Below, in pieces: positions 8,237 to 63,344 of a stretch of 64,000 nucleotides of DNA. The DNA comes from Carcharhinus longimanus. Taxonomy: Eukaryota. Made by a program: the position numbers and the translations under genes. The DNA lies in the NCBI GenBank assembly GCA_030264375.1, contig JASCQW010000122.1, positions 27,859,642-27,923,641 on the forward strand, read 5' to 3'. Position 1 is the stretch's first letter. Each line of letters starts with the position of its first letter. The notes beneath the pieces were generated by a model. It was not told the origin of the DNA. It saw nothing but the letters and a program-made list of their open reading frames with translations, and did no database searches.

Positions 8237-10879
8237 GGGCTTGTTGCCTTTCCTAACTCATTCTTTCTTCTTGTTTATGAAGGGCCGTTTGTGTACTTTT
8301 TAAATATGTCATCCCTGCACTATATTGGGACACCTGTTTTCCTGGCTGCCCCCCCATGAGACTCAGTGTGGAACACATGCATGCATAACTGTTGATGTTG
8401 AGAGCTCACAATCTGCATAAAAACCCACCCCTCCACAGTGCAAATTACTCCTGCTTTGAGCTGGCTGCAGCAGCTGTCACCCCACTGATCACTAGAGTTG
8501 ATTCGGCTGACCTGGCTGGCTAGGCAGGTGTCCCCCTTCCCTCACAGCTCCATGTGAGAACCTCCTGAAGCTCAGTGCTCACTTGCAGAGGATGACCCCC
8601 TAGAAGAGGACCGCTCTGCCGATCTAGGGTATATGACTTAGTTACACTCCCTCTTAGCTTGCCGTGGAATCCATAGCAGCAGGGGAAGATTTTGCCACTA
8701 ATTCAAAAGTGTAAGCCCACACCAGAAAATGCGAGACAATCTGAGAGTAAAGTATTAGTCTGCAAACTTTTGTGGCTGTCCAATTGGTTCCTAATTATGA
8801 ACTCAGAGTTCTTACCTCAGACAGGCATGAGGTGGTCACTAATGCTGAAATAAGATGACTTTAATGCTGTGATGTCGTTCTGCCACCATGAGTGAGATTT
8901 TAATTTGTTCAGAACCCACTCATTAGCAAAGTGTTAAAATCAGGCGCTGCATTAACACTTTTAATGATAGGGAAAATCAATTGGAGAAACTAAAGTTGAA
9001 TGAAGGCGGGAAGGAGATCACAAAGTCACCGGAGAAGTGTCGCAGGGAATGTTGGTGATAAGGGCAGATGTTTCCCTTTCATTATTTCCCTTCTCCTCTT
9101 CCTAATGTTGCATCCCTTGCTCAGGTACAAGATGACGGGAACCCACTTCCCTGAAGGAGACCGCTGGCAAACCCAACAAGCTTTGCTGTATAGCCTTCTG
9201 AAGGGAGAGCTGCCCGGCCCCATTTAGTTCCAAAGCCACCACTAATTTTTGGTGGGCTTATCAGCCACTTTTGTCTTCCAATTTAATTGGGGATGGTTTT
9301 GCCACCATCAGAAGACTAACACAGAGTCTTTCCCATTATTAAATAGACCTGGCCATTATGTTCCCACAAAATAGGCTGCATTTAATCCAGCCCAAAGGAG
9401 CAAATGGATAATGGAAGGTTTCTAAAAGGTAACCTGAAATTTTTGCACAAATGTAAGGAGCATCAGGAATAAACTTTTGAAATTAGCAGCACAAGTGACG
9501 ATATTGACTTGATTGGCATGACAACATGAGAAGCTGAGGAAGTGTAGAATATGTAACTTGCCGAGAACTGGCATTATTGATAAGAAATTATGGAACAGCA
9601 TTACATTGGATTGATATAACATCAGAAGGGAAGAGAGCAAAAGCAGTTTGCATTGAAATTAGCAAAAAGGAAGGCAAAAATTAGTAACAAATGTACAGAA
9701 TTTAAGGCAACAGAGGGAGTAGAAATTGTAGAACATCAATTCTTTTAGGAACTTTATTTAAATGAAACAAGGGAATTCCAAGCTAGTATCCAATCATTGC
9801 TTTTTTTCCCACATTATACTTCATCATATTGATCATTTTGTGTTTGTTTAGTGCCATTGAAATTTAGCCCTCTCGTCTTCCGAGAGAATACTGATGCTTC
9901 GGAGATGTGTCTATGTTATGAGGAGAAGCTTATTTTCCTTGGTGAAGCAGAAAAAGGCATTGATGTTGTAGATATAAAATGGTTTTGTGAGTCACAGAAT
10001 GAAAAGGATGCAGGTAATTAAAAAACCTAAGCGGCATTAGACTAATTAAAGCTTTTAGTTTCAGCAAGAGAAGTGGGTATGAGAAGTGAAGCCCCTTAAA
10101 ACAGCTGATATTCTGCTGGTTAACACTTTAAAAATAAACATTTGAATAGAAACAGAACCTGGAGCTCAAAGGTGCAGATGAGAGGATGAGTCAATATTCT
10201 AGGATTTTACTTGATTATGTTGGGGAATTTATGATTATTTACACAAAACTTTCCCTTGGGAGATTAAGTGGGTGGCTCTGATAGAGTAGATTGTAGATAA
10301 TCTGAGTTGATAATAGAGTGAATTGAGGATGGTTTGTTGAAGGAATGGATTGATGGGTCAAATGACCTTTTGTTCAATTTCTTCTTATTTCTAAATAAAG
10401 TACAATTTATTTAATTTCATGCATTGAACCTTACGGGATTCATATGCAAGTATTAAAGATAGTAATGCAAATGTAGCAAAATTTTACATTACAACTGATG
10501 TTTTGTTTCACAAAGTAAACATTCACCAAAATCTATCCACAAATTGGTGCTGGAGAGATTATTTGTTGGGATCATTAGAGTTATTGTGGCACGGACTTCT
10601 GTATTTCTTCATATAGACAAAAAATAAATCAGACAGGTCAAACAGTGCAGATCTAATCTTACTGTAGGCTGAAAACATAGTAGCTCTATCTGCCACTGGG
10701 GTATAGTCAAGCATACGGTGACCCTGCTGTGAACCGGAGAGGAAGAGGGATCACCAGCAGGTGCAGTCTGACAGAACTCAATGTCGCATTCAAGTTTATT
10801 CTTTGTACATTTCTGAGAACCACAGGATTGTGTTTTTAATCGAATACCCCAGGGTTTTCCCCTGCATTCTCACAATTAC

Positions 10880-15417: not shown

Positions 15418-15522
15418 TTCTTGACAAGGTGCTGCATAAAAGGCTGGTGCCTAAAGTAAAAGTGCAGTAAAATTGGAGGAAGTGTGTTAGCATGGATTGA
15501 AAACTGACTGTCACTTAGAAAG
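15418..15522 (+). mobile_element. CR1 RT fragment (left half of a split element)
   Basis: FDKVLHKRLVPKVK...IGGSVLAWIEN*LSLRK; the frame continues at 17884. Confidence 0.8.
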
Positions 15523-15803
15523 AAGTCTCACAACACCAGGTTAAAGTCCAACAGGTTTATTTGACAACAATTGCCACTAGCTTTTGGAACATTGCTCCTT
15601 CATCAGGTGAGTATGGAGTTCTGATCACAAACAGTGCATATAAAGGCATACACTCTGTTTACAGAATGCTGATTAGAATGCGAGTCTTTACAAGTAGTCA
15701 AGTCTTAAAAGTCCAGACAAATCGATTGGAGATAGCATTAAGCATAGATTAAAGAGATGTGTATTGTCTCCAGACAGGACAGTAAGTGAGATGTTGCAAG
15801 CCC
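15523..15803 (-). mobile_element. Penelope-like element terminal repeat with degenerate hammerhead (15575-15609)
   Basis: AAGTCTCACAACACCAGGTTAAAGTCCAACAGGTTTATTTG terminus. Minus strand reads CAC CTGATGA A GGAGCAATGTTCC AAAA GC TA GTG. Confidence 0.75.
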
Positions 15804-17652: not shown

Positions 17653-17883
17653 TAAGAAGGCTCACAACACCAGGTTAAAATCCAACAGGTTTATTTGGCA
17701 ACAAATGCTACTAGCTTTCAGAGTGCTGCACCTTCGTCAGGTGAGTGCCCACTCACCTGACAAAGGAGCAGCACTCCAAAAGCTAGTGGCATTTGTTACC
17801 AAATAAACCTGTTGGACTTTAACCTGATGTTGTGAGACTTCTTACTGTGTTTACCCCAGTCCAAAGCCGGCATCTCCACATTA
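17653..17883. mobile_element. Penelope-derived palindromic terminal repeat with two opposed hammerhead motifs
   Basis: Inverted arms 17653-17747 and 17750-17844, followed by the tail CTGTGTTTACCCCAGTCCAAAGCCGGCATCTCCACA. Confidence 0.85.
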
Positions 17884-18954: not shown

Positions 18955-20086
18955 GTGAATTCATTTGGGGGAATTGGAGTTTGTAGAAAGACAGGGAGAG
19001 GTTTCACAATTTATTCAGCACAGTCAAGAGTTGTGTCTCAATTTAGATGAAAGTTCCTGGTTGATCTGATGGTCTTTGGATTGTGTTGTGTGTGTAATCA
19101 ATGACATTCTGTATCTGTGGGAATCTCACCACAGATGTAACTCTTGAGTGCCTGCTCATTCTGGCTATTGTTATCTCATAAGAAGTTGGTATTGTTGACT
19201 CCTAGGCAAATAACCAATCATTCACCTGCCTTATAGGTTTATGAGCAGCAGATCAGGAAACCCTCACTGCATCTTGAAGAGGCTAGTGGCAAACAAATTT
19301 AAGGCAGCAGTGATTTTCACATTGACAGGCAACACATAGCCAACAGGTCTAGCAGGAAGCAGTTCTTCTGGAAGGCTGCAGATGTCTGCTTTTACTTGGC
19401 ATGTTAATGTGAGCCTCAGGAAGCACTGGTCTTCAGAGAGTTCAAGGAAGCTGAGACCTGGATCCCCTGTTAAGTGGGTAGCGCCTCCTGCAACTTTGAT
19501 CCCTCATTTGTTGCCCTCTCCTTTCCCTTCCCTGCTGTCCATTTCTCTATTCTCTATTGTCCACACCTCCACTGTCCACCACAGTTCCCGCCACAGTGTG
19601 TCATTGTTGCTGCTGCTTGTCAGCCAGGAAGTGATTCATGCATTATACAGTGAGGGTTGAGGAGGTTGGTTAATGCCATACAATGACTTAAAAAACCATG
19701 GAACCTCAATCCCAGCAGTTAAAGCAGGACCTCACTCACTGCTGAACTTTACTCCTGAGCTCACAAAGTTTAAAGGTCAGTGGAAGGAGTCTCCAGAGTG
19801 GAGAAGTACATCTGTGGTACTCCCTGCTGAATTTGTCAGAGATACCAATGAAAACTGTCCTACCTTGTGGTTGGATTGAAATGTTAGACCCTATCCTATC
19901 ACCAACCACTCCCACCTCCCTCATTCCCCCACACTCCATCCACCTATCCCTGCACTCGAAACCCTTGTGTGTGAGGGGCATTTAAAAAAAACACTACATA
20001 TTCCTTCTTTGTGATTTTAGAATCAAGTTCATGATCCCAAGTGGTTTTCCCCTGATTGGGCCACATCTCTGCCCATCAGGAGGGTA

Positions 20087-20399
20087 AAAAGTCTGACAAC
20101 ACCCGGGTTTAGTCCAACCTAAATAGGTTGGACTAAACCCTGGTGTTGTCAGACTTTTTACTGTGTTTACGCCAGTNNNNNNNNNNNNNNNNNNNNNNNN
20201 NNNNNNNNNNNNNNNNNNNNNNNNNNNNNNNNNNNNNNNNNNNNNNNNNNNNNNNNNNNNNNNNNNNNNNNNNNNNGACGAAGAGGCAGTCCCCTCGAAA
20301 GCTTGTGAGAATATTATCAAATAAATAGGTTGGACTAAACCCTGGTGTTGTCATACTTTTTACTGTGTTTACGCCAGTCCAACGCCGGCATACCCACAT
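20087..20399 (+). mobile_element. Penelope-derived insertion with a 5' inverted terminal segment, hammerhead motif and 13-bp TSD
   Basis: CATCAGGAGGGTA is duplicated at 20074-20086 and 20400-20412. Palindrome at about 20087-20158. GACGA A GAGG CAGTCC CCTC GAAA GC TT GTG follows the gap. Confidence 0.85.
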
Positions 20400-20489
20400 C
20401 ATCAGGAGGGTAGCAGTATGACTTATTTCACTGGGTGTACTAAAGAGTTACTCATTATAAACTTTGCTCCCACTAAATTTATTTAATTA

Positions 20490-56865: not shown

Positions 56866-57610
56866 ATGGCAAACTGAGTAAGGGAGAGGACGCTAAGATT
56901 CAGTGATGCTGCACTGGGGGTGAACATGATTTGGAGATGCCAGCGTTGGACTGGGGTAAACACAGTAAGAAGTCTTAAGAACCTGGTGTTGTGGGACTTC
57001 TTATGGCACTGGTGAACCCAGTGGAGACAAGGAGAGAAGCTATGTTTCAAAATTTGCAAGGAGGCCCTCAAGCAGCGGTCTCTGAAGGGAATGGGAGCAT
57101 GTGGCAAGGGAAGTGAATGCTTGTTGACTGGCCTCCAATGGCACCAGTGTCACAGGAAGCTTAATGACCATAATCTTGTTAGCAAGGTTAGTGAATATAT
57201 TCTGAAAAGACATTGCATACCCACCATTCACCAACTTCTCGTTGCTCACTGCGCCACACACTTATTACTCACAAAGCAGCACTCACTAACACTCAAAATT
57301 CACACCTAATATTCACATTTTCCCAGCACACCTTCCAAACACCAGCATCACAGCCACCTTTCACTGCATCTACATACTTCCAACTTATCAACTATAGGAG
57401 GGATATTATCCAAACAGAGTCCAACACAAGCACAGATGTTCTGTCCTCTCTCATGCAAGTAAAGATGGCCCATAACAACAGGGAAATCCAGAACACCAGT
57501 GGAGATCAGTACAACTCCAGACCTCCCTGAAGAGACAGTACCTAGAATAATAGGGTCAGCAACAACAAAGCCCATGGCATCTGAAGCCACAATGACTATT
57601 CAGGATGATC
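56866..57610 (+). pseudogene. Harbinger Myb/SANT partner gene fossil (exons 56866-57186 and 57459-57610)
   Basis: RERTLRFSDAAL...VETRREAMF...REWEHVAREVNA...QCHRKLND|GTTAGT; KMAHNNREIQNTSG...ETVPRIIG...|GTAAGT. Confidence 0.78.
56926..57002 (-). mobile_element. Penelope terminal fragment inserted in the Myb exon
   Basis: ATGATTTGGAGATGCCAGCGTTGGACTGGGGTAAACACAGTAAGAAGTC with an inverted CTGGTGTTGTGGGACTTCTT. Flanked by GGTGAAC repeats (56919-56925, 57011-57017). Confidence 0.75.
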
Positions 57611-61950: not shown

Positions 61951-62575
61951 CTAAAAGAGGCCACCTCCAAGCTGAGGTGCTCCTCCCCACCATACAGACT
62001 GCTGCTGGGAGACCATCTCGATATAATCTGTTGGTATCATGACGGGCTGGGGACCCATCATGATGTCCATAAAATGGCAGCAGGGTGGACACTGGTCACT
62101 TCATTGAATCAATTGGTCACCTACTCACAGTTAGTCAGCAGCCACATTGCTCCTGTTCCTGCTTTTTGGAATATCCCATGCAAACAGGAAGTCATCAGAC
62201 TTCTTTCCCAGCAGCTTTCACTGCCATGTTAGCAGCTCCCTTGCCTCCCAGCGAATTTCCAGAAGGCTGGTAAAATTCAGCCAAATGTGTCTACCAGCCC
62301 CATGCTTTTTGTGGATCCTGAGAAGGTGGTAAGAGCAGAAACTATGAGGTTACAGCCATGGAAGAAAGATCTCCAGAGAAGATGAGGTCAGTGACAGTCC
62401 TGAAAATGAGGTGGTGGATTCATACCAGAGGAGGAACTTGGCCTTGATATTTCTGGGAAATTGGGGAGGCTGCATTGGAGTGCAAAAGCAGAGGGAAAAC
62501 TCGGCACAACTATATATATGGCAATCCCACTGAATTCATACAATTCCTGCCACCTGCCTGGCAACTAACCACATT

Positions 62576-62663
62576 AAAAGGTCTGACAATACCAGGTTTA
62601 AGTCCAACTGATTTATTTGATAGTAAACTCACAAGCTTTCGAGGTTTCCCTCTTCGTCAGGTG
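62576..62663 (-). mobile_element. 88-bp Penelope-derived insertion with a perfect 12-bp TSD
   Basis: ACTAACCACATT at 62564-62575 and 62664-62675. The body is homologous to the Penelope terminus at 20277-20360. Confidence 0.9.
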
Positions 62664-62664
62664 A
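62629..62664 (-). ncRNA. Minimal type-I hammerhead ribozyme with intact core
   Basis: Minus strand UCAC-CUGACGA-A-GAGG-GAAA-CCUC-GAAA-GC-UU-GUGA. Stem I is UCAC/GUGA, the cores are CUGANGA and GAAA, stem II is closed by a GNRA loop, and the palindromic AAGCUU replaces stem III. Confidence 0.85.
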
Positions 62665-63344
62665 CTAACCACATTGACAGGCTGACTAGACGCTAGCTGG
62701 GAATTTCAGCAGTAACAAGCACGGGNNNNNNNNNNNNNNNNNNNNNNNNNNNNNNNNNNNNNNNNNNNNNNNNNNNNNNNNNNNNNNNNNNNNNNNNNNN
62801 NNNNNNNNNNNNNNNNNNNNNNNNNAGCGGTTGATTGGTGGGGGGAGGGGGAGGTGGGGAAAGGGGGAGTTGGGAGTTGGGGGGCGAATGAGAGATTAAG
62901 GATGATAGCAGGGAAGAGTGAGGCCATTACAGGAGGGAAATTGAGGCTGGGGGTTGGATAAGACTATCAAAGGAAGGAAGGGAGGTGAAGGAAATCAATT
63001 AGGACAAAAAAACCCAACAACAGAAAGAGGCTGAAGTCTTCAGGAGGGACTTGGAGAGCTTGCTGTTCTTGGCCCAGAAGGAATGCTGAAAAGGCTTCTG
63101 TTTCTCTGCTGTGTTTCTGGAGTCCTGGGAGGCCCATTTAACAACTGTAAGATTTACATCAGGATTTTAATTGCATTTGGTAACCTTATTTTAAAATGAT
63201 ATTTCTGCGTCCCACCTCTTGCTATCAGGATATTCGAATGCAGTGAAACTCACTGCCATGAAAAGAGCATGTACTTGCCGTGTATTGGAAATGTTATTCT
63301 CATTTAAAACATTTACCCCGTACCCTCTTTTCCTGACTTTAACC

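Follow-up and report, generated by a model that had tools for sequence, protein, structure and literature searches.

Our analysis indicates with high confidence that the 88 bp at positions 62576-62663 (minus strand) of the window (the whole 64,000-nt stretch of DNA analysed) stem from an abundant Penelope-like retrotransposon (PLE), of which they form the 3' end, and make up an ordinary 5'-truncated copy that is likely inert now. All tested features of this insert match published Penelope-like insertions, and it behaves neither as an independent element nor as a retrozyme. The hammerhead ribozyme that it carries has a complete core, and its presence in so short a piece follows from its place in the parent element, only ~55-90 nt from the point where copying starts, so that most copies longer than ~90 nt carry it.

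Anatomy of the insert and its hammerhead

The insert is flanked by two exact copies of the 12-bp sequence ACTAACCACATT, which cannot be extended and represent candidate target site duplications (TSDs) at the element's 3' end (62564-62575) and 5' end (62664-62675). An exact 12-mer would arise by chance at ~1e-7 per site, or ~1e-5 if 100 boundary combinations are allowed. A reading of the window from sequence only had proposed an 88-bp insert between perfect duplications, delivered by retrotransposition, and the exact 12-bp duplication bears out both proposals. The inserted sequence is part of the element's pseudo-LTR and ends at the short 3' end of the family. On the minus strand, 8 of the 12 positions of the 3' TSD agree with how the element itself would continue, which leaves the 3' boundary uncertain by one base or more; target and continuation match at 4-10 of 12 positions in other TSD-flanked copies with the short end. 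Compared to the majority sequence of 68 copies with the same hammerhead, the window copy differs at 4 of its 88 positions, including one CpG-type change. A 100-N gap starts 50 nt away from the insert, and the left flank contains short multi-copy segments with raised contig depth (~62350-62410 and 62240-62290) that belong to another repeat.

Read on the minus strand, the insert contains every conserved core base of a minimal type I hammerhead (CUGANGA, GAAA, UH, and G10.1-C11.1). The 5' strand of stem I (62661-62664) consists of a U supplied by the TSD and the element's CAC, with two more pairs in the native element. It is followed by the catalytic box CUGACGA (C3-A9, 62654-62660) and by a segment at 62641-62653 with a bulged A (62653) and a 4-bp stem II, GAGG/CCUC, closed by a GAAA loop (62652-62641) and including the G10.1-C11.1 pair. 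The GAAA box (62640-62637) overlaps the palindrome AAGCUU (62638-62633), which replaces stem III (together 62633-62640), and the 3' strand of stem I, GUGAGU (62627-62632), finds partners here for its first four bases only. The predicted cut, deduced from hammerhead numbering, lies 3' of the CUU triplet (H17=U) between 62633 and 62632, as had been proposed. An Rfam scan of the window returned 10 matches at E<=5, none of them to a hammerhead family.

The sequence-only reading thus recognized an intact minimal hammerhead correctly, down to its GAAA-capped stem II and palindromic AAGCUU, and two of its structural claims need amendment. The 5' end does lie at stem I, as claimed, but we count the element as cut inside that stem, since native stem I has 6 bp (AUUCAC/GUGAGU), of which four pairs are left, one of them using a target base: the U of UCAC (62664) belongs to the TSD. 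The remainder had been described as a 52-nt Penelope tail with AATAAA. The AATAAA is present (62612-62617, minus strand) and occurs in 27 of 27 ungapped family copies, but the 52 nt make up the remainder of the pseudo-LTR; an optional tail of ~37 nt comes next in the element and is absent here.

Forty copies span the hammerhead, and we aligned the 27 that are ungapped, leaving out 13 for indels. Each pair of native stem I is formed in 23-27 of the 27, though this helix is nearly invariant in sequence, and the variable positions are mainly those of stem II with its loop, plus position 17. The stem II pair +12/+21 (positions are counted on the minus strand from the insert's first C, 62663, as 0) is A-U in 12 copies, G-C in 11, G-U in three, and unpaired in one, in counts uncorrected for kinship. 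Copies that are otherwise ~95% identical differ strongly in stem II and its loop, with 37 variants listed and one compensatory pair (loci L132-L279), and this diversity implies many source elements. A complete core is kept in 18 of the 27 copies, as it is in the window copy. Judging from these alignments, the hammerhead fold is likely under selection in source elements and not in the window copy.

Whether a lone copy would be active was addressed by structure prediction. Stem II of the window copy has predicted pair probabilities of 0.99-1.0, while stem I, folded with 30-nt flanks, reaches 0.17-0.18 versus 0.54-0.70 in the native copy L024. In co-folding with a rough secondary-structure model, the catalytic dimer was not favoured either for the window copy (-18.5 versus a minimum of -31.0 kcal/mol) or for L024 (-22.1 versus -26.4 kcal/mol). 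The lone copy is predicted not to cleave efficiently, because it would need a partner to have a stem III and its stem I is shortened. In Cervera and de la Pena 2014 (PMC4209133), the one single minimal motif assayed did not cleave and dimers cleaved at a low level; dimer cleavage is also the subject of Lunse et al., as cited in a review (PMC6765202). An Anolis ribozyme is described in Frangieh et al. 2024 (PMC11167929) as inactive without the element protein and dispensable for insertion in vitro. With its core complete, the window copy may still be active.

A large Penelope-like family

The genome searched comprises 2.68 Gb with many gaps, and the closest matches to the 88 bp are 95-99% identical. 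Three 27-nt tail variants gave 6,729, 102, and 15,400 exact matches (22,231 altogether), with zero matches for the reversed controls. Forty arbitrarily placed 10-kb stretches contained 34 family matches in 18 stretches, 29 of which reach the 3' end, and extrapolation from these stretches puts family ends genome-wide on the order of 1e5. The suggestion of an abundant ribozyme-bearing system is thus upheld by at least 22,000 exact-tail matches. Presumably the family resembles repeats of cartilaginous fish. Its 3' ends were surveyed in a tail-anchored sample of 160 copies, made up of 90 loci from the three tail-variant searches and 70 matches in 60 further stretches: 154 ends could be resolved, 59 of them at +123 to +126 and another 88 in the range +83 to +100. 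These two ends, at about +89 and +126, correspond to the optional 30-40 nt 3' tail of such elements.

Many near-identical copies share upstream sequence (up to 179 nt) and diverge from it at different points. A walk upstream led through a ~216-nt 3' UTR to the end of an ORF and then to GIY-YIG-like and RT-like frames. In the broken copies L121 and L309, the order of RT then GIY-YIG and the motifs are consistent with the single ORF of a PLE; no intact ORF was recovered. Pfam matches to RVT_1 (E=0.003) and GIY-YIG (E=0.017) were both below cut-off, and Atlas feature matches provide leads only: in the clusters matched at 0.96, 30% of members bear RVT_1, and in the cluster matched at 0.97, 31% bear GIY-YIG. 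Two ORF pieces searched against PDB sequences returned weak irrelevant matches or none.

The layout of the parent element is best seen in two of the 30 loci fetched with an RT-region query, where partial tandems preserve pseudo-LTRs. L285 has the ORF end, UTR, hammerhead, tail, and ATG of the next ORF in sequence; L309 has a partial repeat, a broken ORF of ~2.6 kb, and the repeat again. The hammerhead repeat therefore lies on both sides of the ORF, which is the Penelope pseudo-LTR layout. Both loci belong to a more divergent subfamily (75-81% identical to the reference), and no full-length member of the subfamily to which the window copy belongs was retrieved. An ATG lies just after the long 3' end, at +127, where A, T, and G occur in 41, 36, and 27 of 51 long ends; L285 is alike (minus strand, oriented position 498). 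Since the long 3' end stops at or just into the ATG of the ORF, hammerhead and tail are likely 5' UTR. This layout, and the continuation upstream into an RT/GIY-YIG-like ORF, support the earlier attribution of the motif to Penelope-associated minimal hammerheads. A fixed 5' boundary at -177, seen in three of 30 loci, was dropped as a candidate, as most of the 30 loci fetched with that segment extend upstream.

The family agrees with hammerheads from pseudo-LTRs of metazoan PLEs as described in PMC4209133: a short helix I, a bulged base before helix II, G10.1-C11.1, a palindromic 15.2-16.2 segment without helix III, and a helix II that is highly variable within one genome, with mostly single dispersed copies. 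Helix II has 4 bp here versus 7-8 bp in Schistosoma families, and the window copy lacks two helix I pairs. Most minimal hammerheads occur singly according to the same paper, probably from truncated PLEs. Frangieh et al. (PMC11167929) describe comparable features for the Poseidon element PAc of Anolis carolinensis, including an RT followed by a C-terminal GIY-YIG-like region, a pseudo-LTR hammerhead, two 3' ends separated by an optional tail, and copies containing the uncleaved ribozyme. The PAc ORF starts at hammerhead stem II, whereas the ATG here follows the long 3' end.

The window was said to hold six other hammerhead copies or remnants, and four of these belong to the same family: one at 15.6 kb, two at 17.7 kb, and one at 20.3 kb. 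A complete core survives in one of them, the minus arm at 17.7 kb; two cores are broken and one is cut by N. The first of the four (15517-15803, minus strand) is a longer copy of a more divergent subfamily that extends at least 199 nt upstream of the hammerhead before meeting an N gap, with a core broken where GAAA reads AAAA. At 17653-17881, two divergent-subfamily copies form a head-to-head inverted pair joined ~4-5 nt upstream of the hammerhead, the minus arm with the short end and the complete core, the plus arm with the long end and a broken core. The third locus (20084-20400) comprises an inverted tail-only pair (20084-20176), an N gap, and a plus-strand long-end copy (20277-20400) whose 5' core is lost in the gap. 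The remaining two places, ~50300 and ~57680 (plus strand), drew no match from a profile of 166 family copies. Visual inspection shows hammerhead-like motifs that have decayed, their cores broken and their sequence contexts similar to each other, probably a second ribozyme-bearing repeat family.

Several other features of the window were observed. Tail-only remnants of the same Penelope family lie on both strands at 56928-57003, without a hammerhead, and are the nearest listed family match to the insert. The inverted Penelope pairs at 17.7 and 20.1 kb would fold into long hairpins if transcribed; three Rfam microRNA-family matches below gathering score (17668-17830 and 20079-20167) coincide with such pairs and were read as hairpin artefacts. 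A 7SK RNA-like copy at 8453-8761 (plus strand; Rfam 101 bits, E 2.8e-25) matches poorly in its 3' third and is possibly a retrocopy; its presence suggests a vertebrate genome.

Positions of 5' ends and inverted insertions

The distribution of 5' ends was examined in the tail-anchored sample and in a hammerhead-anchored one, which comprised 90 of the first 100 places out of 453 copies with an identical 30-nt hammerhead. N gaps, which are probably non-random with regard to structure, hide the 5' end in 89 of the 160 tail-anchored and 43 of the 90 hammerhead-anchored copies. The 71 resolvable tail-anchored ends range from +56 to -156, with one at 0. In the hammerhead-anchored sample, 59 of 90 copies reach -10 or beyond. 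Another 17 have a resolvable end between 0 and -9, and in the other 14 an N gap interrupts that interval; one of the 90 ends resolvably at the window copy's point. Nine exact upstream bases are kept in at least 254 of the 453 copies genome-wide. The pile-up at +31 expected of ends cut by the ribozyme was not seen: six ends fall at +28 to +34, a rate of 0.008 per nt versus ~0.009 overall.

These distributions bear on the proposal, made from the window alone, of an independently mobile 88-bp unit with a shared 5' end. Such a non-autonomous mini-retroelement, its 5' end set by stem I and its copies self-amplified, would fit the exact 12-bp TSD around little more than a ribozyme with a complete core. 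It would also fit the excess of 5' ends near the 5' edge of the hammerhead across all copies (12 of 71 at -5 to +3, p=3e-4, tail-anchored; 17 of 47 resolvable ends at 0 to -9, p=0.036, hammerhead-anchored), in windows that were picked after seeing the data. The non-inverted copies, however, have no excess at 0 to -9 in the hammerhead-anchored sample (5 ends per 749 nt at risk versus 22 per 2427, p=0.80) or at -5 to +3 in the tail-anchored one (3 of 29, p=0.20), in samples where inverted scraps shorter than 14 nt occur in some copies classed as non-inverted and where a few pairs entered with both arms. A 5' end defined by the ribozyme would moreover be expected at +31, not at 0.

Candidate TSDs of 10-14 bp flank eight of 29 non-inverted tail-anchored copies (two with N at the 3' end were skipped) and four of 27 hammerhead-anchored ones. 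The 12 TSD-flanked non-inverted copies other than the window copy all differ in their 5' ends, which range from +53 to -102, and none ends at the window copy's point; five of the 12 have 20-42 nt of filler, and some such TSDs may be chance. A search for TSD-flanked copies with a common 5' end had been suggested as a check, and what the simple copies show is the scattered truncation expected of ordinary dead fragments. Nor do the window's rare alleles mark a daughter subfamily with private diagnostic substitutions among 68 copies: three of them occur in six, two, and four copies and a fourth in 19, and only six of the 68 carry two or more of the four. In 30 sampled copies with the window's tail allele, 15 resolvable 5' ends are spread from +38 to -148. 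Given the scattered ends, the lack of an excess in non-inverted copies, and the lack of a private-allele subfamily, we regard the mini-retroelement as very improbable.

Animal non-LTR retrozymes, as described in bioRxiv 10.64898/2026.07.22.740005, are likewise non-coding, carry type I hammerheads, and derive from PLE pseudo-LTRs. They consist of tandem units, each with a hammerhead, whereas here one dispersed copy lies between TSDs, with no boundaries shared among copies. No tandem hammerhead partner of the insert was found in the window, where the nearest listed family match is the tail remnant at ~57.0 kb.

The excess near the hammerhead is confined to inverted insertions. Inverted element sequence lies next to the 5' end in 42 of 71 tail-anchored and 20 of 47 hammerhead-anchored resolvable copies, and these have 12 ends per 749 nt at 0 to -9 versus 8 per 2427 (p=5e-4, hammerhead-anchored) and nine of 42 junctions at -5 to +3 (p=3e-4, tail-anchored). 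Inverted junctions cluster within ~10 nt upstream of the core, at ~5x the upstream rate (hammerhead-anchored; loci L131-L400). Some of them carry small fold-back hairpins, and the clustering may in part be an artefact of alignment or censoring.

The enrichment of inverted junctions raises the question of whether truncation is random. A hammerhead fold at which the reverse transcriptase pauses, or which promotes strand switching directly upstream of the core, would over-produce hammerhead-sized inserts. We consider this unlikely as an account of the insert, since the window copy belongs to the non-inverted class, in which no enrichment is seen. The enrichment itself was measured in windows chosen post hoc, with ~half of the copies hidden by N gaps and some pairs counted by both arms, and self-complementary sequence can bias the alignment of inverted junctions. 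The preferred reading of the insert stays that of ordinary truncation.

Inverted pairs also have an uneven composition. After examination of 62 rows, with one duplicate removed and others dropped for N, odd ends, or long spacers, 29 distinct pairs with adjacent arms comprise 22 long+short, six short+short, and one long+long (expected 14, 10, and 5; p=0.002). When long spacers are allowed, a TSD of 8-15 bp surrounds 18 of 33 inverted pairs. Long+short pairing suggests that both nicked strands prime synthesis, at two start sites, in line with a proposal from in vitro work. One might go further and propose that the hammerhead fold steers integration of the family, with a dimeric enzyme priming both nicked strands, one arm per start site, and the cDNAs joined preferentially just upstream of the core; we hold this to be a long shot.

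These insertions resemble PLE insertions in general as described in Craig et al. 2021 (PMC8557442) and Arkhipova et al. 2013 (PMC3846280), which have strong 5' truncation, partial tandems, an adjacent inverted 5'-truncated copy, a 30-40 bp tail often at one end, TSDs of 8-10 bp, and assembly gaps at insertions. The inverted 5' copy and the one-sided tail are described in PMC8557442. By comparison, TSDs of the present family are mostly 10-15 bp and its copy number is far above that of the rotifer. Among the papers listed by our literature searches, none deals with a stand-alone Penelope hammerhead of ~90 bp or with the present family, which is probably undescribed in them.

Age, integration and significance of the insertion

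The 3' junction of the insert is bridged by contigs in four of eight sequencing runs from three studies, representing two samples and organisms B and C, with flanks ~1-3% different. Among the joints listed for the eight runs, none skips the insert; runs X1, X13, X18, and X22 have no listed contig over the site, and a contig of X4 at the 5' junction reaches 26 nt into the insert, below the 31-letter threshold. The insertion is likely old, because its 3' junction is also found in organisms B and C and no empty site is listed; it likely predates the splits from both and is not a recent polymorphism. Orthologous contigs from five of eight runs have ~15 extra bases at 62336-62340, likely reflecting a small deletion in the window's lineage. 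The 22 sequencing runs listed for the site include no RNA runs, so they have no bearing on expression.

Conceivably, the host has retained the copy for a cis-acting role, self-cleavage or polyadenylation, in a passing transcript. Its complete core, its AATAAA, and the 3' junction common to organisms B and C would suit such a role. Both motifs, however, are the family default (in 18 of 27 and 27 of 27 copies, as noted above), the sharing of the junction needs no selection because flanks differ so little, and the copy is off the majority at four positions, one by a CpG-type change. A Pfam scan of 19 of the window's 31 long frames found no domain, a result still compatible with an intron. We think retention by the host extremely improbable.

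The preferred reading, that of an ordinary truncated copy, can be put as a sequence of events. The element's enzyme would have nicked the target, and target-primed reverse transcription would have started at the short internal site, its priming perhaps aided by the partial match between target and element continuation. Uncleaved RNA would then have been copied through the ribozyme, with termination after 88 nt, and the cDNA joined to the target at one shared base (microhomology) inside stem I. Frangieh et al. (PMC11167929) describe a pair of internal start sites, with uncleaved RNA serving as the main template.

By itself the insert carries little weight, being one copy among at least 22,000 exact-tail matches, and dispersed minimal hammerheads of truncated PLEs were described in 2014. 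Cleavage of host RNA in trans by dispersed copies would, if it occurs, constitute a genome-wide layer of RNA processing, a possibility to which the present data lend no support. Steered integration, if true, would spread hammerhead-sized cassettes through the genome by the thousand, and some of them would be able to cut passing transcripts by pairing in trans. The very large family provides thousands of natural integration products on which the two-start-site, two-strand mechanism proposed in vitro can be tested, and the same family could show whether the ribozyme fold influences where copies end.
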